58,407 nucleotides of DNA, from the NCBI GenBank assembly GCA_964409225.1, contig CAYPCM010000004.1, positions 1-58,407 of the forward strand, given 5' to 3'. Every line of letters begins with the position of its first letter. The first letter of the stretch is position 1. The DNA is from an uncultured Candidatus Saccharibacteria bacterium (lineage in GTDB: Bacteria > Patescibacteriota > Minisyncoccia > JACPXH01). Positions 2,454-56,495 of the stretch are shown in pieces. The notes under the pieces were generated by a model. That model ran no database searches and was not told where the DNA came from. It saw only the letters and a list, made by a program, of their open reading frames with translations. The translations under genes were made by a program, and so were the position numbers.

Positions 2454-4685
2454 GTGGCTAAGAGCATCGTTTCTCCCAACCTCGCAAGCCCCGTAGCCAA
2501 GCTGCCGCGGGTGCGGCCGCTGGTGGCCAAACGCCTCAAAAACCTCGGTGTCGAAACCGTGCGCGACCTGCTCTTGCATCTGCCCCGGCGATACGACGAT
2601 TTCTCGAACGTAACGCAAATCAGAAATTTACAAGTGGGGGAGACCACCTCGGTAAAGGGGGAGGTGGCGTGGGTCAAATCCCAACGTACTTGGCGCAAGC
2701 GCATGGTGATTACCGAAGCCGTCATTGCCGACAAAACCGGCTCGGTGCGCGCGGTTTGGTTCAACCAACCGTACCTTGCCGATTCTCTCCGGCAGGGATA
2801 TCTCGTCGCTGTTTCCGGCAAGGTGTCCCTCGACCAACGAGGCCTCGTCTTCTCTCACCCGTCACACGAGGTGCTCCGCGGAACGCGAAGCGAAAAAGGG
2901 GAGTCGGAAACACTGCACACGGGCCGGCTCGTCCCTGTTTATCCCGAAACCGCCGGCCTTACGAGCCGCTGGCTAAGGTTCCTTATCCAACCGCTCGTAA
3001 AATCAGTAGGGGATTTACCCGATCCCCTGCCGGCTGAAACCCTGCGCCGCCACAAACTCCCTTTTTTCGGTGAAGCGCTTCAACAAGCTCACTTCCCTAC
3101 CAATCTCGAAACAGCCAAAGAGGGGAGACGGCGGCTCGCCTTTGAAGAACTGCTTTTAATCCAACTCGCCCACCAAAAGGCGCGGCGGAAAGTGAAAACG
3201 CTGGCCGCGCCCGCAATCACCCTCAACCTTGAAACAGTCAAGGCCTTTGTCGCTGCCCTACCCTTCGCCCTTACCAATGCCCAGCGCAAAGCCGCCTGGG
3301 AAATCCTGCAGGACATTACCAAGCCCCACCCGATGGCGAGGTTGCTGGAGGGCGACGTGGGCTCTGGTAAAACCGCGGTGGCGGCAATCGCCGCGAATGC
3401 AGCCGCTCATGCCGGCTATCAAACTGCTTTCATGGCGCCCACTGAAATACTCGCGCGCCAACACTTTTACACGCTCAATAAACTCTTTGCACACACACCC
3501 CACTCGGTTGGATTACTGACAAACTCTGAGGCACGGATTGCGCGAGGCGGCACAGAAGAAACGATGCCGAAGCGCCGTCTGGTCGCAAGCGTCGAAGCCG
3601 AACTCATTGACGTGCTGGTGGGGACGCACGCACTGCTGCAAAAAAACGTCTCCATACCCAAGCTCGCCTTCGTCGTCGTTGATGAGCAGCATCGGTTCGG
3701 GGTGGAGCAGCGAGCCGCACTAATGCGGAACCACGAACCAGAAATAAAAAAACTGGGAGAAGCAAACGAAATCAAAATTCAAAATTCAAAATTCAAAATT
3801 CCTCATTTATTGAGCATGTCTGCCACCCCCATTCCCCGCACCCTCGCACTAACTATCTACGGCGATCTGGATCTGTCGATCCTCAACGAACTGCCCAAAG
3901 GCAGACGTGCCATTGAAACGCGGCTGCTCCCGCCGGTTGAACGCAAACGCGCGTACAAATTCGTCCGCGATCAAGTTCGGCTGGGTCGGCAAGCGTTCGT
4001 CATCTGCCCGCGCATCGACCCCCAGAGCGCAGACGAACGCGGAAGTGTTATGCGCGAGTCCGCGTTCCACCAACGTCAGTCCGCGCTTGCGCTATGGGAG
4101 GTAAAAGCAGTCACAGACGAATATCAGAAACTTTCTAAAACAATATTTCCTGACCTGAGGGTGGGCATGCTGCACGGCAAGCTCCCGGCAAAGGAGAAAG
4201 CCAAAACAATGACGCAGTTTGCAAACGGTAATCTCGACATACTCGTGTCCACCTCTGTCGTGGAAGTCGGCGTGGACATCCCCAACGCGACCGTGATGAT
4301 GATTGAGGGCGCGGAACACTTCGGTTTGGCGCAGTTATACCAATTTCGAGGCCGCGTGGGTCGAGCCGAACACCAGTCGTATTGCCTGTTATGCACCGAT
4401 TCCACGGCCAGAGCGGCGCATGAGCGCCTCAAAGCAATTGTCGAAGCGAAATCCGGCTTCGAGCTTGCGGAAAAAGATCTGCAGTTGCGAGGCCCGGGCG
4501 ATTTTCTGGGCACGCGCCAATCAGGGCTCCCAGATCTCGCCATGGCAAGCTTGTCAGACGGCCGACTCATCAAAGCCGCACGAACCGAAGCCGAGTTGCT
4601 GCTTCAACAAAACGCCGACCTCTCGCGCTGGCCGCTGCTCAAGCAACGCCTGACAGAGTTTGAAAATGAAGCCCACCTAGAATGA
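2454..4685 (+). CDS. recG: ATP-dependent DNA helicase RecG
   Basis: Wedge/OB domain, GDVGSGKT, DEQHRFG, SATPIPRT, QFRGRVGR, RGPGDFLGTRQSG. Confidence 0.97.
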   Translation: MAKSIVSPNLASPVAKLPRVRPLVAKRLKNLGVETVRDLLLHLPRRYDDFSNVTQIRNLQVGETTSVKGEVAWVKSQRTWRKRMVITEAVIADKTGSVRAVWFNQPYLADSLRQGYLVAVSGKVSLDQRGLVFSHPSHEVLRGTRSEKGESETLHTGRLVPVYPETAGLTSRWLRFLIQPLVKSVGDLPDPLPAETLRRHKLPFFGEALQQAHFPTNLETAKEGRRRLAFEELLLIQLAHQKARRKVKTLAAPAITLNLETVKAFVAALPFALTNAQRKAAWEILQDITKPHPMARLLEGDVGSGKTAVAAIAANAAAHAGYQTAFMAPTEILARQHFYTLNKLFAHTPHSVGLLTNSEARIARGGTEETMPKRRLVASVEAELIDVLVGTHALLQKNVSIPKLAFVVVDEQHRFGVEQRAALMRNHEPEIKKLGEANEIKIQNSKFKIPHLLSMSATPIPRTLALTIYGDLDLSILNELPKGRRAIETRLLPPVERKRAYKFVRDQVRLGRQAFVICPRIDPQSADERGSVMRESAFHQRQSALALWEVKAVTDEYQKLSKTIFPDLRVGMLHGKLPAKEKAKTMTQFANGNLDILVSTSVVEVGVDIPNATVMMIEGAEHFGLAQLYQFRGRVGRAEHQSYCLLCTDSTARAAHERLKAIVEAKSGFELAEKDLQLRGPGDFLGTRQSGLPDLAMASLSDGRLIKAARTEAELLLQQNADLSRWPLLKQRLTEFENEAHLE

Positions 4686-11810: not shown

Positions 11811-11937
11811 CGCTTGCCTCCTCACACATCTTCCTGTTGAGTAATCCCCCTCCGACGCGGACGGGTGTGCACGCGCGGAGCCTGCGATCGCCCCAACAGC
11901 TCAACCCGCATGATCGACCCCTCCTCCCTTCTCCGCC

Positions 11938-14192: not shown

Positions 14193-15392
14193 ATGAGAAT
14201 TCTCGCCATTGAAACCAGCTGCGACGAGACCGCGGCGGCGGTTGTGGAGGATCTTCAGCTCCGCGCTTCTCGACTTCGCTCGAAACAAAACCAAGCGCGG
14301 TTCCGAATCCTCTCCAACGTCGTCTCCTCGCAAGTGAAAATCCACGCGCCGTTTGGCGGGGTGGTGCCGAATCTTGCCAAGAGAGAACACCAAAAAAACT
14401 TAGTACCAGTTTTTCTTGAAACCCTTGGCAAAGCCAAACTTTTAAACTCGAATTCCGAAATTCGAATTTCGAAATTGGTTCAAAATTCAAAATTCAAAAT
14501 TCTCCACTCCATCCTAGAGCGTGAACCGGAGCTGTTGAATCAAGTAGTAAAGCGCGTGTTGTCCCTCAAGCCGCCGCCAATAGACGCAATCGCCGTAACG
14601 ATCGGCCCTGGGCTCGCGCCCGCGCTGTGGGTGGGGGTGAACTTTGCTCGCGCGCTTGCGTATGTGTGGAATAAACCACTCATTCCGGTCAACCACATGG
14701 AAGCGCACCTCTATTCTAATTTCTACGGCCCGCGTCGTACGTTCCGCTACCCTATCGTGTGCCTCACCGTATCTGGCGGCCACACGCAACTTATCCTGAT
14801 GACGTCACTCAAACGCTACCGCGTGCTTGGAGAAACACGCGACGACGCGGCTGGCGAGGCCTTTGACAAAGGCGCACGGCTTTTGGGCCTCGCCTACCCG
14901 GGCGGCCCGAAACTTGCCGGACTTGCACGCAACGGGGATCCATACACATTCGCTTTCCCGCGGCCTATGTTGAAAGATAAAAGCTACGACTTCAGCTTTG
15001 CCGGACTTAAAACATCTCTCCTTTATCTTCTCAAAGACGACCCAAAACTGCTCGGGCGCAAAGCTGATCTGGCGGCAAGTTATGAAGCGGCAATTGTGGA
15101 CGTGCTCACAGCAAAAACCCTGCGCGCCGCGCGCGAGTTCCGGGCGAAGACAATTTTTATCGCCGGAGGTGTCGCAGCCAATAAAAAACTCCGTAGCCAG
15201 ACGATTCAGCGAACCGCCTCATTGATCCCGAAACCGCATGTGTACGCTCCCGAAGATAATCTTTCAACCGACAATGCGGTCATGATTGCGATTGCGGCAT
15301 TCGTCGCAACATCGCGCCTGCCAGCAACTGACAATTGGAAAGACGTCGCCGCCAACGCAAATCTTCAACTTTCAGAAACCGCGATTTCCTAA
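14193..15392 (+). CDS. tsaD: tRNA t6A37 threonylcarbamoyltransferase TsaD
   Basis: ILAIETSCDET, NHMEAH, VSGGHT, DDAAGEAFDK, TDNAVMIA. Confidence 0.97.
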   Translation: MRILAIETSCDETAAAVVEDLQLRASRLRSKQNQARFRILSNVVSSQVKIHAPFGGVVPNLAKREHQKNLVPVFLETLGKAKLLNSNSEIRISKLVQNSKFKILHSILEREPELLNQVVKRVLSLKPPPIDAIAVTIGPGLAPALWVGVNFARALAYVWNKPLIPVNHMEAHLYSNFYGPRRTFRYPIVCLTVSGGHTQLILMTSLKRYRVLGETRDDAAGEAFDKGARLLGLAYPGGPKLAGLARNGDPYTFAFPRPMLKDKSYDFSFAGLKTSLLYLLKDDPKLLGRKADLAASYEAAIVDVLTAKTLRAAREFRAKTIFIAGGVAANKKLRSQTIQRTASLIPKPHVYAPEDNLSTDNAVMIAIAAFVATSRLPATDNWKDVAANANLQLSETAIS

Positions 15393-48416: not shown

Positions 48417-51257
48417 TTACGGACGCTCGGGCGACTCGATCCGCCTCTCCCCCTTCTCCTCCACCGGCGCCTCTGTCCGCGCCTCCGGCGTAGGCGCCGG
48501 CGGCGCAATGCCTTGAAGCGCATCTTGGCCGCCTCTAAGATTTTCCAGAATGCGCTTCACCTCCTGATTGTCGGGATTGAGCGCCGCCACTTTCTCAAAC
48601 TGTTGAATGGCTTTTTCTTTTTCGTTATTGCCGTCGTAAATAAGCCCGAGGAAATAGCGGGCATTAGAGAAGTTCTGATCCAGCCCCACCGCCCGTTCAA
48701 ACGCCGTCTGCGCACTCACTCGATCATTCGACTTATAGAGCAGAAATCCAAGCTGGAACCAAATCCCCGCGTCGTTCGGCGCCGCTTGCGCCAATTGTGC
48801 GGCCCGGTTTACGGCACTCGGTAAATCGCCCTGCCGGTCAAACACCTGCACCAAGAGGAAATGCGCCGGTCCAAAATCGGGTTTCAGTTCGAGCGCTTCT
48901 TCTAGAAACTGTTTTGCGCCGCTAAGCAGAGACGTGCGTTCGTTTTCCATTGACTTAATCTGCTCAGCCGCCTGCTGGTTGCTTTTGAGCTGCTGAATTT
49001 GGTTGGCAATGCGATCGGCAGTGCTCACGGCCGTGCGCGCCGTAAACAGTTTCGCCAGCGGGTTTACCGGATCAAGCTGGCCGGCCGCGCTATAAGCTAT
49101 ACGCGCCTCGCCTTCAGCGCCCGGCACCAGCGGCAACACGTTTTCGTATGCGAGCCCCAACGTAATCCAGTTCTGCGCATCCAGTCGGTTCAACGCCACC
49201 GCCTGACGGGCCGACTGAATGGCGTTTTGAATCGTGCCTTCAAGCTGGTTGCGCGTGGTCTGCACATCTGCTTCATTCGGCCGAAAGTCCGCAATTGTCC
49301 GCGACGCCTGCAACAGGAATGCCTGCGTGAGCGAACGATAATACGCCGGTTCTGACCCCCAGAATTGCACCGCCCGCACCAAGTGAGCCACCGCCCGGCT
49401 GGGGTCGCCCCCGCGGTTCAACCTCTCCAACCCAAACCCGTAAAACACCGTGGAAGCATAACGCTGCAACTCCAGATACCCGCCCGCCACGCCCGCAATC
49501 ATAAACAGTATTATAAGGAATGACGCGCCGAGCGTTCGATGCGAACTGCGGTACAAATCCCACCGCCGTTCGATATCGCCCATCCTATCAGTCCTATTTG
49601 TCCTATCTGTCCTATTGGACTTATCGACCCAATCAGTCCTATCCGTCCAATCCGTCCTATTTGTCATTCCGGGCTCGACCCGGAATCCACGATCGGACTT
49701 ATCGCTCCCGCCGTCGTCCCCGCCGCCGCCCGTCGCCGCAACCAGCCGCACGCTCGGCCGCTCGAAGAACGCGAATGCGCCGGTAAGCCCAAGCAACAAA
49801 GCATAAGTGGCCAGATTCAAAGAATACATAAACCACACTGCCCAGCCGAACACAATCGCGCCAAATATGCCGAGCGCAAGTTCGGGGTGCTCGCCCTTTC
49901 CCGATCGGTAAAGCGCGCGCACTGCCGCCAGCCCAAACAAAGCCATAAGCCCGAGCCAAGCAACCACACCCAGATACCCCTGCCCGGCCATTACGTTTAC
50001 GAGCGCCGACCGGCCTTGGTCAAACCGCACGCCCCAGAACGCAGTCGCGTTCAAGGCCTGCGGTTTGAAGCGGCTGTAGCCGTAGCCGAACGTGCCCGGC
50101 CCTGTACCCAGCAGAAGGCCAACTGGTCCGCGTTCAGTGAGCGCCCGCTGCGCCACTGACAGCGAAACGCCGTAGCCCGGAGAGACCTCGAGCGGCAGGT
50201 CTATAAAGGGCTTGGCCAGCGGAATCTTAAATAACGCGAGGAGCACCGATAGCGCCAACACCAGCATCGGCAACGCCAGGCCCCGCGGCAGCGCCCGCCG
50301 CTCCGGTGATTCGTCGTCCGGATTTTTGATTTTTGATTTTTGATTTTTGATTTCGGAATTTGTCCTTCCCATCACAAACGCCACCATCGCCGCCATGGCC
50401 ACCGCCAGTCCAAGCCACGTCCACCGCAGGTTTATAACCACAATGTTAATCAGGAATATGACCCCGGCCGCCCCGTACCCAAGCCGCGCCACGGCCGAAA
50501 GCCGCTCCTCGCGGGACTTCGTCGCCATGCCAATCAAAAGCACAAGCAAAATGCCAAACACAACCCCCAGATGGTTTTGACTTCCTGCGCCCGCAAAGTT
50601 GAGGTTCCGGCTGAACTCCCACGGCAAAAGGAAGGTACCCGTCACCTGAATCAAATTGAACGCGCCATAGATCGCCGCCGCTCCAATCAACCACCCCACG
50701 GCACGGCGCACGTCGTCAGCCGAGCGCCACAAGGCGGTAATCAAAAAGGCAAACAGCCCCAGACCCAAAATTCCGGGCAATGCCTCGTGGCTTAAACCGA
50801 TGTTGGCGAAGCTTTGCGTGGGCGCGGCGGAAAAGAACGCGGCCGCAACGCCAACCGCCGTGACGGCGAATATCCCCCAGTGCATAAGCGACTTGCGATA
50901 ACGCACCTCGCCGGTGGCCAGCGCCTCGCCCAGCCAACACAATAGCGCCCCCAGCACGAGCATTGCGAACACAAACTCTTTATTGAGTTCAACCGGCGCC
51001 GCCGTAATCGGCAGAAACACAAACGGCACGAGCGCGAACGCCGCATACAGCAGCCGTCGGCCCACGCTGAGCCACCATGTTTCGTCTGCAGCCGCCACTT
51101 CCCCCGGTGTAACCGCCGCGCGAATCCGTCCCAGCAGCCCTATCGGTCCTATTGGACTTATTGGACTTATTGGTCCTATCGGACCCATTGATTCCGTTAC
51201 CGGCTCCACCGACTCTGCCGGCGCTACCTCCTCCTTCCGACGCGGAAATACGTCCAT
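48417..51257 (-). CDS. O-antigen-ligase-like multi-pass membrane protein with C-terminal TPRs
   Basis: Many TM helices, LLGTGPGTF, TPR repeats (AHFLL, IWFQLG, ARYFLG). Confidence 0.85.
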   Translation of the reverse strand: MDVFPRRKEEVAPAESVEPVTESMGPIGPISPISPIGPIGLLGRIRAAVTPGEVAAADETWWLSVGRRLLYAAFALVPFVFLPITAAPVELNKEFVFAMLVLGALLCWLGEALATGEVRYRKSLMHWGIFAVTAVGVAAAFFSAAPTQSFANIGLSHEALPGILGLGLFAFLITALWRSADDVRRAVGWLIGAAAIYGAFNLIQVTGTFLLPWEFSRNLNFAGAGSQNHLGVVFGILLVLLIGMATKSREERLSAVARLGYGAAGVIFLINIVVINLRWTWLGLAVAMAAMVAFVMGRTNSEIKNQKSKIKNPDDESPERRALPRGLALPMLVLALSVLLALFKIPLAKPFIDLPLEVSPGYGVSLSVAQRALTERGPVGLLLGTGPGTFGYGYSRFKPQALNATAFWGVRFDQGRSALVNVMAGQGYLGVVAWLGLMALFGLAAVRALYRSGKGEHPELALGIFGAIVFGWAVWFMYSLNLATYALLLGLTGAFAFFERPSVRLVAATGGGGDDGGSDKSDRGFRVEPGMTNRTDWTDRTDWVDKSNRTDRTNRTDRMGDIERRWDLYRSSHRTLGASFLIILFMIAGVAGGYLELQRYASTVFYGFGLERLNRGGDPSRAVAHLVRAVQFWGSEPAYYRSLTQAFLLQASRTIADFRPNEADVQTTRNQLEGTIQNAIQSARQAVALNRLDAQNWITLGLAYENVLPLVPGAEGEARIAYSAAGQLDPVNPLAKLFTARTAVSTADRIANQIQQLKSNQQAAEQIKSMENERTSLLSGAKQFLEEALELKPDFGPAHFLLVQVFDRQGDLPSAVNRAAQLAQAAPNDAGIWFQLGFLLYKSNDRVSAQTAFERAVGLDQNFSNARYFLGLIYDGNNEKEKAIQQFEKVAALNPDNQEVKRILENLRGGQDALQGIAPPAPTPEARTEAPVEEKGERRIESPERP

Positions 51258-51312
51258 AAAATTGATCTTATTAGTCTTATCAGGCCTATTCGACTTATTG
51301 GTCTTATTAGTC

Positions 51313-51906
51313 CTATCGTCCCCAAATCTGCCTCTTCCTCTCTTCAATCCGCTTCTGAAAAAGCCGTTCTGTCCACCCGCCTTCTTTCACAAACTGCTCT
51401 TCGAGCGCCCGAATTTGTCGGTCCAGCAGAAAATTCACCTGATGGATGAGGCAAATCGCCGCATTCGCCGCCGTCTCCGGCTCGTCTAAATAAGACCTAT
51501 AAGTCCAATAAGTCCTATCTGACTTATCTGACTTATTGGTCTTATCCGTCCTATCGGACCTATACACCAACCCCCTCACTGCCTTAGCTTCCGGATCATC
51601 TTTCCCCCACTGCCTTAAGCCCCGCTGGCGCAAAAAGTCCTCATAGTCCTCTAATAACTCCTGAAACGATGCCCGCGCAACCCCGAGGAGCTTGAGCTCG
51701 CCTTTCTCAGAAGTTCGCTCGGTCGAGCCCTCCACGATATTTTGCTTGCCGGATCGCGCGGCTTGCACCATCTGGTCCGTCGTCCTATTGGACCTATATG
51801 ACTTATCGGACTTATCCGTCGCTCGAACGTAGCGGTCGCAAAATTCCACCGTGTAGTCGTAAATAATCACCGCCTGCTGATAAGATTTAAGTTCTCTATA
51901 GCTCAT
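51313..51906 (-). CDS. Four-helix-bundle protein with suffix domain (23S-IVP/Avd-like family)
   Basis: YRELKSYQ, DQMVQAARSGKQNIVEGS, VARAS..ELLEDYEDFLRQR, FVKEGG.TE. Confidence 0.88.
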   Translation of the reverse strand: MSYRELKSYQQAVIIYDYTVEFCDRYVRATDKSDKSYRSNRTTDQMVQAARSGKQNIVEGSTERTSEKGELKLLGVARASFQELLEDYEDFLRQRGLRQWGKDDPEAKAVRGLVYRSDRTDKTNKSDKSDRTYWTYRSYLDEPETAANAAICLIHQVNFLLDRQIRALEEQFVKEGGWTERLFQKRIEERKRQIWGR

Positions 51907-52037
51907 ATTCGTCTTACTAGCTGATAGACCCTATCAGTCCTATTGGTCTTATTAGTCCTATCGGCCTTATTTGACTTATCCGTCCTATCGCCCCAGCAGA
52001 TACAACTGCTTCACCTCTTGAGCCGTCAGCGCGCGGT

Positions 52038-52295
52038 TTACCCCGTGAAATACGATTTGAGGCGTCTACGCAAAAACATTTTGCCCCTATACGATTTTAA
52101 AACTCGCTCTCTCCTGCTCGCATCATCTTGTTTCTTACACGCTTCATAATAAATGAGCTCAAGCGGCCTGCGATCTTTTGTTGACTCAACCCATCCTTTC
52201 TGGTGTTCCTCAAATCGTGATTGTAAATTTTTTGTATAACCAGTATAAAGTTGCTTGTCTTTATGGCTAAAAAGTACGTATGTGTAGTAAAACAT
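52038..52295 (-). CDS. GIY-YIG nuclease (small standalone)
   Basis: YTYVL..LYTGYT..L..RF.EH..G...TK.RRP.ELIYYE....A..RE..LK. Confidence 0.93.
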   Translation of the reverse strand: MFYYTYVLFSHKDKQLYTGYTKNLQSRFEEHQKGWVESTKDRRPLELIYYEACKKQDDASRRERVLKSYRGKMFLRRRLKSYFTG

Positions 52296-52331
52296 ATTCT
52301 GTTGCAAAAAATTTACAATATTTCACGGGGT
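52040..52331. mobile_element. GIY-YIG mini-element with 13-bp terminal inverted repeats
   Basis: ACCCCGTGAAATA (52040-52052) / TATTTCACGGGGT (52319-52331). Confidence 0.8.
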
Positions 52332-52352: not shown

Positions 52353-54578
52353 TTAACGACCCATATTATAGAGTTGCTTTACTTCAGCAGCACTCAATGC
52401 CCGATTATACACCCGGACTTCGTCAATGAGGCCGTCAATATAATTGCCATCTGACCTTCTTCCAATTTCCAGATTTTTAGTTAAATCTTGAGTACTATTC
52501 AAAGCGGCATTAACTTCGCTTCTATCAAGCACCCCATCGAGATAAAATTTAAGAGTAGTACCTCCTGCATATGTCAACACAAAATGATACCACCTATTAG
52601 TTTGTAACGACGTTCCTCCCGCTTCAATATCTATATAATGAAAATCTGAAGCTCCACCAGTATTATCCATGGCTATTCCGCCACCTTTAGTTACGCCTCC
52701 TGATGTTAGAGTTCTAACTTCAAATTGATTATTTGCCCCTTTGGTAATTAGCATATCGTAATCAGGTGGCAATGTATCAAAATATGCCCAAGCAGAAACA
52801 GTCATACCATTAGTAGGGTCAAAATTAAGTGATGAAGCTGCAGAAACACTCACATAATCATCACTCCCGTCAAAACTCAATGCCTGTCCGAGTTTGCCGA
52901 TGGCGGGGGCGGTGGAGGTGGACATGTTGGTGATGGTGCCGTCGTTGCCTTGACCCGAGCGATCATAGGCCTTGTTGGCGGTAAAGCTCACATCCGGGCC
53001 GTCGAAGGACCATTCGCCCACCAAGCTTGAATCGCGCAAGCGAATGTTTTGCGAAGTGTTTGCGCGCACAGAGCCGGCCAGATACAACTGCTTCACCTCT
53101 TGAGCCGTCAGCGCGCGGTTATAGACGCGGACTTCGTCAATGAGGCCGGGGAAACGTAAATCGTCTGCAGAGTTCACTTTTCTATTACCTATTCTACATG
53201 TTTCCGCGCCTGTAATGTCACCGATCCAATTTGAATCATCATGCGGACCTCCACTTCGCTCTGTCAAAGATTGAGATACGCCATCAACATATATTTTCGG
53301 AGCAACCGCATCTTGAACGGCGACCACATGATGCCATACATTTTCACTAACCGCTGGTGTTGAATAGTTCATTTCATTACCAGACGGCGGGTACGCATAC
53401 AGTCCTATAAATTTTGTCCCATTTCCTTCCGAGCTATACTCAATAGCCAAGACATTAAACGCGTCTGTTGATTTGCTGACACTAAAGAGCGCCCCTCTGT
53501 TAGTGTTACTTGCTTTAAACCAAAAACTAATACTTCCTTTTGTAAAACTAGAGATCAATTGCCCAAGAACATTTGTCCCATCGGCTGGACACGATACATA
53601 ATCATCACTCCCATCAAAACTCAACGCTTGGCCGAGTTTGCCGATGGCGGGGGCGGTTGAGGTGGACATGTTGGTGATGGTGCCGTCGTTGCCTTGACCC
53701 GAACGGTCATAGGCCTTGTTCGCGGCAAAACTCACGTCTGCCCCGTCAAACGACCACTCACCCACCAAGCTTGAGTCGCGGAACCGGATGTTCTGCGAGG
53801 TGTTCACATGCGCAGCGCCGGCCAGATATAGCTGCTTCACCTCTTGAGCCGTCAGCGCGCGGTTATAGATGCGGACTTCGTCAATGAGGCCGTTGAAGTC
53901 ATACTCTGCCGCAAGAGAATTATAGATGCCGATGAGAAAAGAAACCGTCTCCGTGGGAAGCGACACGGTGGCAGTTTCTGTCGCCTCCTGGACGCCGTTG
54001 ATGTAGACGCGAAGTGTATTGCTGCCATTGTAAGTCGCCGCGCCGTGATACCAGCGACCCGGAACGATAGTGGTTGTCGTGTCGTCATCGCCGACGACTG
54101 TCGTGCCATCGTAGACGAGGCAACGCAACCGGTCGTTCGTGTTGTTGATATAACAGGAGTAACCGCTCCCGTCCGCCGAATCACGACGGGAGAATATGTA
54201 GTTATTGGTATCGTGAATCGCATTGGCCTTGAACCAAAATGAAGCCGTCCAACCAGTTGTAACATTCAATGACGAGTTAGTCCCCGCATTTACATAATCA
54301 TCACTCCCATCAAAACTCAACGCTTGGCCGAGTTTGCCGATGGCGGGGGCGGTTGAGGTGGACATGTTGGTGATAGCGCCGTTGTTGCCGCTTCCCGATC
54401 GGTCTGACGCGATGTTCGTGGTGAAATTCACATCCGGGCCGTCGAACGTCCAATACCCCACCATGCCGAGGTTATTGATGGGTCGCGTGATGCGCCCGCC
54501 GGCAGAAACATCTCTGCCAAAGCCAAAAAGGAATACACCGAGGAGAATAAAGAAAAATGCGAGAGAAAACTTTTTCAT
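52353..54578 (-). CDS. Secreted protein with three LamG/concanavalin-A-like domains
   Basis: Signal peptide; 3x W.FDG...GKLGQALSFDGSDDYV...GLIDEVR.YNRAL. Confidence 0.93.
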   Translation of the reverse strand: MKKFSLAFFFILLGVFLFGFGRDVSAGGRITRPINNLGMVGYWTFDGPDVNFTTNIASDRSGSGNNGAITNMSTSTAPAIGKLGQALSFDGSDDYVNAGTNSSLNVTTGWTASFWFKANAIHDTNNYIFSRRDSADGSGYSCYINNTNDRLRCLVYDGTTVVGDDDTTTTIVPGRWYHGAATYNGSNTLRVYINGVQEATETATVSLPTETVSFLIGIYNSLAAEYDFNGLIDEVRIYNRALTAQEVKQLYLAGAAHVNTSQNIRFRDSSLVGEWSFDGADVSFAANKAYDRSGQGNDGTITNMSTSTAPAIGKLGQALSFDGSDDYVSCPADGTNVLGQLISSFTKGSISFWFKASNTNRGALFSVSKSTDAFNVLAIEYSSEGNGTKFIGLYAYPPSGNEMNYSTPAVSENVWHHVVAVQDAVAPKIYVDGVSQSLTERSGGPHDDSNWIGDITGAETCRIGNRKVNSADDLRFPGLIDEVRVYNRALTAQEVKQLYLAGSVRANTSQNIRLRDSSLVGEWSFDGPDVSFTANKAYDRSGQGNDGTITNMSTSTAPAIGKLGQALSFDGSDDYVSVSAASSLNFDPTNGMTVSAWAYFDTLPPDYDMLITKGANNQFEVRTLTSGGVTKGGGIAMDNTGGASDFHYIDIEAGGTSLQTNRWYHFVLTYAGGTTLKFYLDGVLDRSEVNAALNSTQDLTKNLEIGRRSDGNYIDGLIDEVRVYNRALSAAEVKQLYNMGR

Positions 54579-55040
54579 GAATTCTTAATTTCCAATTTTG
54601 AATTTTGAATCAAATTCGAATGCTTGAATTTTGAATGCGCGCCTTGTTCATAGAAGAAATGATTTTCCCAAAAATGAGTGTTAGCTCCTGCGCTTCTTTC
54701 CACAGCGTTTTGATTTCTTCTCTGTGCGGCGGAAAACATCGAGCAAGCATTCTCAGCCAGTGCTTAGATTCCTGCGCTTCTTTCTTGCAAATGAAGACCT
54801 TGTTCTTAAAGTCCTTTTTGGAACTCGCCGCGTTCGCCTCCATGTAATTGGCTCCGATGCCGGTGGCCGAACGAATCAGCTGACTGATAATTGGCTTGGA
54901 TATAGCATCCTGGGGCAGCTTCTTGCAGAAATCTATAACTCTCTCACCAAACTTGGCGGTTCGTTCTTCGAGGTCATAGTTGTTTCGAGTTTCAGTCATT
55001 TGGAATTCATTCAAAATTCAAAATTGGAAATTAAAAATTC
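54579..55040. mobile_element. Four-helix-bundle cassette with 32-bp heptamer-built terminal inverted repeats
   Basis: GAATTCTTAATTTCCAATTTTGAATTTTGAAT (54579-54610) vs ATTCAAAATTCAAAATTGGAAATTAAAAATTC (55009-55040), one mismatch. Confidence 0.8.
54610..54999 (-). CDS. Four-helix-bundle protein (23S rRNA IVP/Avd-like family)
   Basis: DLEERT..F, QLIRSATGIGANYMEA..A.SKKDF..K..I..KEA.ES..WL. Confidence 0.92.
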   Translation of the reverse strand: MTETRNNYDLEERTAKFGERVIDFCKKLPQDAISKPIISQLIRSATGIGANYMEANAASSKKDFKNKVFICKKEAQESKHWLRMLARCFPPHREEIKTLWKEAQELTLIFGKIISSMNKARIQNSSIRI

Positions 55041-55685
55041 TCACCGGAACTCCCACGTCTGTAAAATCTTACCCAGCAGATCGTCCATCTCCGCATAAGC
55101 GGTGATTTGATACAGATACCCGCCGGACACAAACCACACTTCGCGCGTGTTCCCGAGCGAATCGTCGCGGCTTAAAAAGGCGAGCGCGTTTTCGCCGCCC
55201 ACCGAGACGGTCTGCGGCGTATCAATCGCCATGTCCGGAATGTCTTTCCGGATGCGCTCGGGCGTGATGGGGCCGGGCTTGCCCTGAGCGGGGTCGAAGG
55301 GCTCGTCGAATTCCGAAATGCGAATCTGGAACTCCTGCTTCTGGTCGTTTGGGTTGCGCATAAGCACTGTTTCGCCGTTGTCGTCTGGCGGCAGGGCGGT
55401 AACGGTGAACCCGGCCGGATAGCGGAACGAAAAATACGGTTTCGGGTGAGTATAAACGAGCGCGCCGGTTTCGCCGGCCGATTCTAACGACTTACGGCTA
55501 GTAGGGTCTGACCCTCCTGCGAGCGCATCTGCCCCGCCGGTTTTAACGATCGGATTTTCGGAAACAGCGGCCGGCTGCGGAGAACGCCTCAACGAAACGA
55601 ACGCGAATATCCCCGCCAGCACAAGAACGACGGCAATGAATACCGCGGGTCTTTTTGCGAATAACTCTAAGAATGGCTTTGCCAT
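55041..55685 (-). CDS. Membrane-anchored PsbP-like protein
   Basis: N-terminal TM, FSFRYP, GYLYQIT, KILQTWEF. Confidence 0.7.
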   Translation of the reverse strand: MAKPFLELFAKRPAVFIAVVLVLAGIFAFVSLRRSPQPAAVSENPIVKTGGADALAGGSDPTSRKSLESAGETGALVYTHPKPYFSFRYPAGFTVTALPPDDNGETVLMRNPNDQKQEFQIRISEFDEPFDPAQGKPGPITPERIRKDIPDMAIDTPQTVSVGGENALAFLSRDDSLGNTREVWFVSGGYLYQITAYAEMDDLLGKILQTWEFR

Positions 55686-56484
55686 AAAGTTATCTAATCG
55701 GCTCCAGCCCCATAAAGTAGGGTCAGACCCTACTTTTGCTTATTCGATGATCTCCTGGCCGAATTCTGTTTGGCCGGCCTTAAAACGAATCCATTCTGCC
55801 ACAACTTCTCTACACCTCTTTTCACTGCCGTAGAAATCAAGAAAAAAATTACGGTCCACGACATGAAGGAACTTTGGTTCCCCAATATAATCGTTATAGC
55901 TTGATGCCCAATATCCCTCGAGTTCTTTGATTGCCCTCCCCGGGTTTTTGACTTTATGTTCTTTCCAACCCGGTTCCCAGAGTTCTACCGGATTGGTGTG
56001 CACGTATGCAAAGACGGCATTCAGCTGCACATCATTTTGAATTCGTACCGCCCTAAAACGCGACTGGAAAAGCGTACCAACCCTATCGTACTGTTTGTTA
56101 AAATAGGTGGAGTAGCCGCCCATTTTTTGCATGAATTGGGAAATGCCGCCTTCCTTGATTTCACGAAGAATGACATGAAAATGATTGGGCATAAGTGTAA
56201 ATGCCAACACTTCAACTATGGGAACATTTTTCATTTTGCGCTTTTCTTCAAGCCGCTTCACTAGCTTAATAGGAGGGTCTGACCCTACTATTAACGCCCA
56301 GAGGTCTGTGGATTCGGGAGTGTTACAAAACTCCAAACCCAAAATAAACCTGTGGTAATCTTGGGGTTTCAGAAAAATTTTACGTTTCTCAACCCCGCGC
56401 TTCACTACATGATAGATTCCGTTTATTTCAAATTGTCTTGGTTGTCTTGGCATGATAGTAAACAATAGGAGGGTCTGACCCTAC
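55501..56484. repeat. Four REP palindromes G[T/G]AGGGTC[T/A]GACCCT[A/C]C
   Basis: 55501-55517, 55714-55736, 56266-56294, 56468-56484. Confidence 0.88.
55740..56453 (-). CDS. REP-associated tyrosine transposase (RAYT, IS200/Y1 HUH family)
   Basis: YHVVKRG, MPNHFH (HUH), LFQSRF, YVHTNPV. Confidence 0.92.
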   Translation of the reverse strand: MPRQPRQFEINGIYHVVKRGVEKRKIFLKPQDYHRFILGLEFCNTPESTDLWALIVGSDPPIKLVKRLEEKRKMKNVPIVEVLAFTLMPNHFHVILREIKEGGISQFMQKMGGYSTYFNKQYDRVGTLFQSRFRAVRIQNDVQLNAVFAYVHTNPVELWEPGWKEHKVKNPGRAIKELEGYWASSYNDYIGEPKFLHVVDRNFFLDFYGSEKRCREVVAEWIRFKAGQTEFGQEIIE

Positions 56485-56495
56485 TTTGCTACTTA

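Follow-up and report, generated by a model that had tools for sequence, protein, structure and literature searches.

The window analyzed here is contig C4 (CAYPCM010000004.1, 58,407 nucleotides) of genome G000, an uncultured Candidatus Saccharibacteria bacterium with 883,525 bp in 60 contigs, 56% GC and a rated completeness of 98%. At positions 54579-55040, on the minus strand, it contains a 462-bp cassette with one four-helix-bundle gene of the PF05635/TIGR02436 family inside terminal inverted repeats (IRs) built of heptamers. This element is probably a selfish cassette of the intervening sequence (IVS) type, carrying an S23p/Avd-like gene and lodged in the spacer of a protein-coding operon. 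Elements of this type are known from 23S rRNA genes, whereas this one lies between protein-coding genes. An IVS-like element had been proposed in the initial annotation, and this reading was supported, since its checkable parts (the fit to the spacer, the stem-loop, the repeats and the empty sites) held. The features of the locus are the following:

55041..55685, minus strand: upstream gene, 214 aa, co-directional, with weak likeness to PsbP_2
55009..55040, minus strand: 5' terminal inverted repeat of 32 nt with about 4.6 AATTTTG-type heptamers, its first base directly following the upstream TGA
54984..55040, minus strand: imperfect extension of the 5' arm to 57 nt, with 82% complementarity to 54579-54635
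54610..54999, minus strand: four-helix-bundle gene, 129 aa, PF05635/TIGR02436
54579..54635, minus strand: extended imperfect 3' arm, partner of 54984-55040
54579..54610, minus strand: 3' terminal inverted repeat of 32 nt that pairs with the 5' arm at 31/32 positions
52353..54578, minus strand: downstream LamG-repeat gene, 741 aa, co-directional

Read along the minus strand, the upstream TGA (55043-55041) is followed by the 5' arm (55040-55009), and the 3' arm (54610-54579) by the LamG ATG (54578-54576). The first base of the 3' arm is the last base of the cassette gene's own TGA, and the end of this arm directly precedes the LamG start. The arms are complementary at 31 of 32 positions (96.9%), and both show period 7, with 4.6 and 4.7 copies (TRF). 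This confirmed the earlier claim that IRs with a single mismatch lie exactly between the TGA of the upstream gene and the ATG of the LamG gene. The likely start of the cassette gene is the ATG at 54999 (MTETRNNYDLEERT) and not the TTG at 55014, because relatives begin with MTE..YDLEERT; the protein then has 129 aa, and its start codon (54999-54997) falls within the extended 5' arm.

The flank-IR score of the cassette was 32.5, with z = 24 against 50 shuffles. As a control, 347 open reading frames (ORFs) of 90-200 aa from this genome were scored likewise; their median was 8 and their 95th percentile 12, and the window cassette ranked second. PF05635 genes took ranks 2, 3 and 4-5 and were the sole heptamer-armed genes at the top of this ranking. 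Rank 1 and the tie at rank 4-5 corresponded to another repeat type, a 38-bp perfect self-palindrome present on both sides of two genes.

Folded as RNA, the segment 54559-55060 reached -144.5 kcal/mol (z = -3.55), a value matched by 0 of 100 shuffles. A terminal stem of about 38 bp encloses the entire cassette in both the minimum free energy (MFE) and the centroid structures, in agreement with the earlier statement that the cassette occupies the whole spacer and folds as a single stem-loop. None of the three overlapping ORFs of the cassette has a Pfam match and no transposase was found in it, again as first described. Rfam gave no matches at E ≤ 0.1 between 50000 and 58407 of the window.

The encoded protein matches PF05635 with 54.9 bits (cut-off 33.8) and the TIGR02436 "four helix bundle protein" model with 74.4 bits (cut-off 24). 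Its nearest solved relative is 2rld_A (E = 4e-14), from an entry with five chains, and homology to 2rld predicts a four-helix-bundle fold and a homopentamer. R43, N51 and E54 of the motif R-x3-S-x3-N-x2-E are present. PADLOC anti-phage defense profiles returned no family for either PF05635 paralog of the window. The order of 214-aa gene, cassette and LamG gene recurs in genome G013 (locus L037), where the cassette protein is 74.8% identical and the flanking genes 34-37% (upstream gene 36.6%, LamG gene 33.6%). The cassette protein is thus far better conserved than its surroundings, which points to strong constraint or transfer.

Four PF05635 genes were found in G000 (E ≤ 1e-5), and three of them have the design of an IR-bounded cassette. 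The C1 cassette (C1:68647-69140), with heptamer-built arms of 43 nt (84%), lies between the stop codon of a sugar transferase gene and the ATG of a glycosyltransferase gene. The C56 cassette (L007), with arms of the TTAGCTT type, separates the stop codon of DnaB from the ATG of RecR; the DnaB gene beside it carries an intein with a LAGLIDADG domain. The fourth paralog (51313-51906, minus strand) combines TIGR02436 with a TIGR04258 suffix domain. It had been said to have a different repeat type, which is the case: nonamer arrays in direct orientation are found on both flanks (51266-51316 and 51930-51994) and also in frame inside the gene, with runs such as DKSDKSYRSNRT and RSDRTDKTNKSDKSDRTYWTYRSY.

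Relatives were collected at two levels. The class-level set comprised 41 genomes including G000, with PF05635 in 23 of them at 54 places, of which 53 were analyzed; a 63-aa fragment at a contig end (G017:C90:6-158) was left out of all counts. Flanking IRs with z > 5 were found in 38 of the 53 genes. The wider scan covered contigs of one genome per species, with an alignment of the window's clade as the query, and confirmed at least 569 relatives. The best 80 of these are 53-75% identical and come from many Patescibacteria lineages as well as from some metagenome-assembled genomes labeled as other phyla, labels that may in some cases be binning errors. Enough flank was available at 78 of the best 80, and IRs with z > 5 were present at 68. 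It had been considered at the outset that relatives might carry the gene without IRs; instead they keep them, at these 68 of 78 wider loci and at 25 of the 26 class-level genes in the clade of the window's gene (support 100/99).

The 106 cassettes with z > 5 (38 class-level and 68 wide) show period 7 in 99 cases, with a median arm of 36.5 nt (5.2 heptads), a median gap of 380 nt and a median element length of 463.5 bp. In the class set, the upstream neighbor is on the same strand in 36 of 37 cases and on the opposite strand in one, being absent for one of the 38 cassettes, and the downstream neighbor is on the same strand in 29 of 34, with five opposite and four absent. The upstream stop lies within 20 nt on either side of the arm in 29 of 36 class-set cassettes, and the median stop-to-arm distance is 4 nt (7 nt in the wide set). 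The downstream start is found between -20 and +40 nt of the arm in 22 of 29 class-set cassettes, with a median of 12. Same-strand neighbors were also frequent in the wide set, both upstream (58 of 67) and downstream (57 of 64). Cassettes are often held by junctions of housekeeping genes, namely rplJ/rplL, DnaB/RecR, SHMT/FolD, GAPDH/RpiB, CorA/CysRS, DprA/TopA, RNase III/SMC and PilC/PilM. The cassette L033 (G036:C8) is the one between the RNase III gene and smc. At L022 (G025:C14), the SHMT/FolD cassette gene has an in-frame TAA, the sole internal stop among the 53 copies.

In a maximum-likelihood tree of the 53 PF05635 proteins, the repeat unit corresponds to the protein clade, a relation that the initial annotation had put forward for checking. 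The unit AATTTT[GC] belongs to the window's clade (9 rows) and AAATCC[TG] to its sister group; near the C1 copy the unit is CAAAAAT and near the C56 copy it is TAGCTT/CTAGG, and one more clade has GAATTAT. On the coding strand, the 5' arms have a common heptad core, n-A-A-T-t-w-n, with 0.9-1.1 bits at positions 2-4 against 0.3-0.5 in shuffled sequences.

The arms stay complementary through compensatory changes. For 29 cassettes, their own 3' flank was the best partner of 106 for the 5' flank, and for 41 it was among the top three. When RNAalifold was applied to a MAFFT alignment of 17 elements, only nine pairs of the terminal stem were recovered because the repetitive arms align poorly; therefore, the window's own stem was projected onto the alignment. 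With this projected stem 81.3% of the cells were paired, compared with 27-60% when the partners were slid, and since the stem was taken from one aligned sequence, these slid controls are biased in its favor. Double-change cells numbered 42 versus 27.7±4.2 in shuffles (0 of 500 reach 42), in a kind of test that relatedness inflates. At pair 76/545, GC was found in nine elements, CG in seven and GU in one, and none was unpaired.

Compared with the empty junctions of relatives, the element is an insertion. Such empty alleles, which the initial annotation had suggested looking for, were found at conserved junctions. Before RecR, a same-strand ORF of 440-500 aa ends within 37 nt upstream of the start at 17 of the 28 loci that could be tested (at two more a contig end intervenes, and the DnaB identity was confirmed by Pfam only in G000 and G008). 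G000 and G008 are also the only genomes with a cassette at the DnaB/RecR junction. Between these two genomes, RecR is 44.7% identical and the cassette protein 57%. The same-genus genome G001 has a GIY-YIG-like ORF at this junction (L052, judged by eye), and a few genomes have short arrays there.

Three of the four cassette sites of G001 were located in G000 and have no PF05635 gene there; the fourth gave no match in G000. At rplJ/rplL, a full four-helix-bundle cassette with TAGTAGC-type arms in G001 (L010) corresponds in G000 to a spacer of about 100 nt with nonamer fragments (about 47401-47535 of the window). At DprA/TopA, G001 has a complete cassette of another clade and type (L032), and G000 has a gene-less AATTTTG-type hairpin of about 100 nt (C31:5671-5754) that exactly fills the space between the DprA stop and the TopA start. 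An arm remnant and about 750 nt of other DNA were found at CorA/CysRS in G000. As for the window locus, a DNA search of the same-genus genome with window positions 53800-56500 gave no match, and among DNA contigs from four groundwater-metagenome runs of one study no listed piece spans the cassette, the contigs ending at repeats. Two metagenome joints (54621 or 54627 to 55004) have 24-28 other letters between sides of 27-35 nt with 90% likeness; they appear to represent short copies of the hairpin or sequence from other organisms and were not counted as an empty allele.

Copies without the gene are also present. The terminal 30-45 nt of the cassette recur at no fewer than 15 other places in G000, with identities of up to 97% over 36 nt, while its 297-nt middle is unique in this genome. 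The recurring loci are hairpins of about 100 nt with the heptamer arms of the cassette. They match its subterminal sequence on both sides, including the start-codon region, and thus have the subterminal part of the extended 5' arm in common with it. The ends of the C1 cassette recur at 27-33 loci, and C56-type ends have no other copies in G000. Two loci of the cassette-arm type are in the window:

3772..3801, no strand: solo heptamer array of the cassette-arm type, with 90-100% matches to the arm
14444..14502, no strand: heptamer array or hairpin of the cassette-arm type

The 23S rRNA IVS of Coxiella burnetii is described as a "selfish genetic element" of 428 nt in helix 45 with an S23p ORF (Warrier et al. 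2016, PMC4990558). According to the passages of that report on the IVS, its terminal stem has 28 bp with one mismatch and a bulge and is cut inside by RNase III, two to three tandem GACAGAT heptamers with strain-variable copy number precede the S23p ATG, and the ORF is decaying and probably untranslated (PMC4990558). The origin of the family in stem-bounded 23S rRNA intervening sequences excised by RNase III, as stated in the initial annotation, agrees with these passages. A "remnant of transposition" and a "mobile element whose ORF serves mobility" appear in them as still untested ideas, and the authors of the Leptospira IVS are cited as having proposed a mobile element with an ORF for mobility (PMC4990558).

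The window cassette resembles the Coxiella IVS in its size (about 430-460 nt), its sense PF05635/S23p ORF, its stem-closing termini and the heptamers in the arm. Gene-less copies are present for the window cassette, whereas the passages on the Coxiella IVS report none. RNase III excision was demonstrated for the Coxiella IVS and is proposed by analogy for the window cassette. The two also differ in location, since the window cassette lies between protein genes and not in helix 45 of 23S rRNA, in the heptad (AATTTTG instead of GACAGAT) and in the protein, which is highly conserved in contrast to the Coxiella ORF, reported to be decaying. The Leptospira 23S rRNA IVS, which Ralph and McClelland are said to have described in 1993, is reportedly stem-bounded as well and carries the founding ORF of the family; its host site is rRNA, unlike the operon spacer of the window cassette.

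Other occurrences of the family have been described. Insertions in rRNA genes of the candidate phyla radiation include a few 23S_rRNA_IVP ORFs, as listed in part of PMC11270868. Eighteen 23S_rRNA_IVP genes at cas loci were read as having a CRISPR-associated function (Zhang, Doak & Ye 2013, PMC3936711), with one between cmr3 and cmr2 at gaps of 85 and 5 nt and with the motif GxxRxxxSxxxNxxE. The window gene is likewise wedged between co-directional genes with very short spacers; the passage on the cas operons mentions neither inverted repeats nor heptamers (PMC3936711). Marine Beggiatoaceae have many intergenic arrays of TAACTGA heptamer direct repeats, often ending about one base before a start codon (PMC4679880). 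Unlike the cassette, the arrays in that account are direct repeats (with one inverted case) that enclose no gene, and neither 'intervening sequence' nor 'four helix' appears as a term in the text (PMC4679880). A literature search that had most subscription journals outside its reach found no account of PF05635 cassettes with heptamer arms lying between protein genes, nor of the hairpins derived from them.

A mechanism can be proposed for the IVS-type cassette. It would be transcribed by read-through within the host operon, which is probable because it has no evident promoter role and is co-oriented with its neighbors. The arms are predicted to close into a stem of 32-38 bp that loops out about 380 nt and brings the upstream stop beside the downstream start. 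With the stem closed, the insertion may be tolerated by RNase III excision and/or structure-mediated translational coupling. In the first case, RNase III would cut the cassette out as in the rRNA elements. In the second, the stem would be opened at its base by a ribosome terminating at the upstream stop, making the downstream start accessible. The RNase III gene of this genome is at C15:3287-3682, and its region (C15:2991-4423) is bracketed by heptamer arrays of the AATGTCA type.

The encoded protein may act on the hairpin of its heptad repeat, and probably binds it, because its homolog Avd binds RNA stem-loops. Avd belongs to a homologous family and is a pentameric basic four-helix bundle; the part of bioRxiv 10.1101/2023.10.23.563531 that deals with it describes a pentameric barrel resembling the S23 proteins and gives stem-loops that bind Avd for 207 of 278 diversity-generating retroelements (DGRs). 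No transposase in cis is involved in the spread of the cassette, and the neighboring Y1 transposase is not linked to it.

Several observations weigh against an IVS-type selfish cassette. Residue 47 of the protein, in the motif mentioned above, is G, and S is found there in at least 90% of 20 aligned relatives. No clear target-site duplication was seen at the three cassettes of this genome, where it was looked for by eye only. Fifteen of the 53 class-level genes have no significant IR, and they are concentrated in a few clades, with the whole clades L013/L015/L027 and L009/L012/L034/L011 among them; arrays are still visible at some of these genes (e.g., L025). The covariation is compatible with an RNA or single-stranded DNA stem, and equally well with two ends recognized as identical DNA sites, or with quasi-palindrome correction during replication. 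Besides G013, the locus recurs partially in G018 (upstream gene 36.4% and cassette protein 60% identical), and in two other families (L037 and L030) a cassette of the same clade is preceded by a homolog of the 214-aa gene, with a LamG gene following the cassette in L037. Since the site between the PsbP-like and LamG genes is occupied in three families and DnaB/RecR in two, this looks like long residence rather than frequent movement. In addition, since the Coxiella ORF is reported to be decaying and probably untranslated, the role of the protein may not carry over.

A broader proposal, possible but still doubtful, is that PF05635 proteins are heptad-reading hairpin binders and that each clade maintains or propagates its own heptamer hairpins, in a transposase-free symbiosis similar to RAYT-REPIN; the classical rRNA IVSs would then be the members that landed in rRNA. 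In REPIN-RAYT systems, a single-copy Y1 HUH transposase gene is flanked by a hairpin that is dispersed in the genome, with a repeat type for each gene clade. The window system is similar in having a flanked gene, a dispersed hairpin of the same type and a clade-specific repeat, but its flanked gene encodes a PF05635 four-helix bundle without known catalytic activity and not a Y1 transposase. The coincidence between about five heptads per arm and pentameric homologs is numerology and no evidence.

The same anatomy could also be host-integrated and not selfish, the difference from the selfish cassette being in what selection maintains. In such a gene-repeat partnership or regulon, the protein would bind heptad hairpins acting as cis-elements in operon spacers, with roles in mRNA processing, stability or coupling, and the gene would be autoregulated. 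This is rather unlikely, although much of the evidence is compatible with it: the repeat unit follows the protein clade, the protein is conserved at 75% against 34-37% in its neighbors, cognate hairpins are found at at least 15 and at 27-33 loci, the arms have the common core n-A-A-T-t-w-n, and Avd binds RNA stem-loops in the work cited above. The genomic distribution of the arrays also favors it. TRF gave 215 period-7 rows in 883 kb, with about 157-172 AT-rich arrays, many of them gene-less hairpins. After merging, 157 AT-rich arrays were assigned to co-directional (89), divergent (13) and convergent (5) spacers, to ORF calls (47) and to contig ends (3); the 47 inside crude ORF calls are partly artefacts of the assigned ORF starts. 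Compared with the background spacers (596 co-directional, 137 divergent and 160 convergent), arrays were enriched in co-directional spacers (89/107 vs 596/893, odds ratio 2.46, p = 4e-4) and depleted in convergent ones (5/107 vs 160/893, odds ratio 0.22, p = 1.6e-4). Heptamer arrays are therefore not ordinary terminators, a candidate role ruled out by this depletion.

The density of arrays with at least three copies per 100 kb points in the same direction, with 2, 0, 1 and 0 in four PF05635-negative genomes and 4, 4, 11 and 10 in four PF05635-positive ones, together with 19 in G000 (Mann-Whitney p = 0.019 for nine related genomes, some of the arrays being the cassettes' own arms). Against a host partnership, several hairpin families of G000 have no cognate gene and the C56 cassette has no dispersed copies; besides, the contrast of 0-2 with 4-19 arrays comes from nine samples of related genomes, and those of G008 may be the arms of its cassettes.

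Heptamer hairpins could otherwise be a generic intra-operon feature, with a small gene that merely survives best in the hairpin loop as a passive lodger. The many gene-less arrays among the roughly 157-172 in 883 kb would fit this explanation, as would the DprA/TopA junction, with a hairpin of another type in G000 and a cassette in G001. It is nevertheless improbable, since at the top of the 347-ORF ranking all heptamer-armed genes are PF05635 genes, the design is present at 68 of 78 loci in many lineages with constant size, and the repeat unit follows the protein clade. Moreover, the cassette and the hairpins have subterminal sequence in common, including the start-codon region.

The Y1 gene at 55740-56465 (minus strand) lies about 700 bp upstream of the cassette. 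It is IS200-like, and its best NCBIfam match, to the REP-associated tyrosine transposase (RAYT; REP, repetitive extragenic palindrome), is below the cut-off. Since Y1 enzymes act on hairpin DNA and this only Y1 gene of the genome adjoins the cassette, the latter could be a non-autonomous DNA transposon moved by the encoded transposase. This is highly improbable: among the 41 genomes, PF05635 and Y1 occur together in 10, PF05635 only in 13, Y1 only in 8 and neither in 10 (odds ratio 0.96, p = 1), and G008, G013 and G036 have 4-5 PF05635 genes and no Y1. In addition, the Y1 gene has its own palindrome, TAGGGTCnGACCCTA, which flanks it and lies inside it (55502, 55718, 56273 and 56469). Four of the 10 genome-wide copies of this palindrome are around the Y1 gene, and some are in coding sequence. 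The Y1 gene and TAGGGTCnGACCCTA seem to form a small REP/RAYT-like system of their own, distinct from the heptamer hairpins. With presence independent of PF05635 and separate palindromes, the Y1 transposase was rejected as mobilizer of the cassette. The cassette has terminal IRs and dispersed copies (at least 15 loci) like insertion sequences and miniature inverted-repeat transposable elements, but unlike them it has no cognate transposase.

Finally, it is scarcely credible that the gene is the Avd accessory gene of a DGR, for, although PF05635 resembles Avd (part of PMC10053308), a relative (L049) adjoins a reverse transcriptase gene and G000 has one such gene, this sole reverse transcriptase of G000 is on another contig (C45), the neighbors of cassettes are housekeeping genes, L049 falls in another clade, on a long branch and with a weak IR, and the adjacent reverse transcriptase and template repeat that serve Avd have no counterpart at the window locus, where no template/variable repeat pair was seen near the gene, such pairs not having been searched for. 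The L049 gene itself (G033:C18), a divergent PF05635 member with the reverse transcriptase gene next to it on the opposite strand, is probably a true DGR Avd, and the IR in its flanks is no more than borderline.

Other repeats were observed near the locus. A 976-aa O-antigen-ligase/TPR-like ORF (48417-51347, minus strand) contains in-frame repeat arrays in both orientations (e.g., 49583-49660, 50321-50353 and 51139-51190), consisting of nonamers (PIGPISPISPIG, NRTDWTDRTDW) and one 33-nt heptamer array. Short repeats have invaded the coding sequence of this ORF with the frame unbroken. The LamG gene is followed by a GIY-YIG gene (52038-52307, minus strand), behind which (about 51985-52050) a remnant of about 20 codons (VNRALTAQEVKQLYLLGR*) resembles the LamG C-terminus, as if the GIY-YIG nuclease gene had been inserted near the 3' end of a LamG gene. 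The 38-bp perfect palindrome that appeared in the flank-IR ranking (TTTCCTAATTATATCACGnnCGTGATATAATTAGGAAA) has about 20 genomic copies, which in some places bracket a gene (C6:11040-11075 and 11816-11851; C7:1028-1063 and 1785-1820), with half-sites in the window at about 4707 and 15386. It may serve as an operator or a terminator, or be a REP-like element.

The cassette bears on the origin and function of the bacterial rRNA IVS and its S23p ORF, a question since the early 1990s. The IVS element type is common outside rRNA, with at least 569 relatives in the scan for one clade. For annotation, this means that PF05635 genes in ribosomal-protein, replication and cas operons may be mistaken for functional partners of their neighbors. 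If PF05635 proteins are indeed hairpin binders, the stem that enables excision from rRNA would also let cassettes sit harmlessly, or regulate, between coupled genes, and this would hold across Patescibacteria and beyond.

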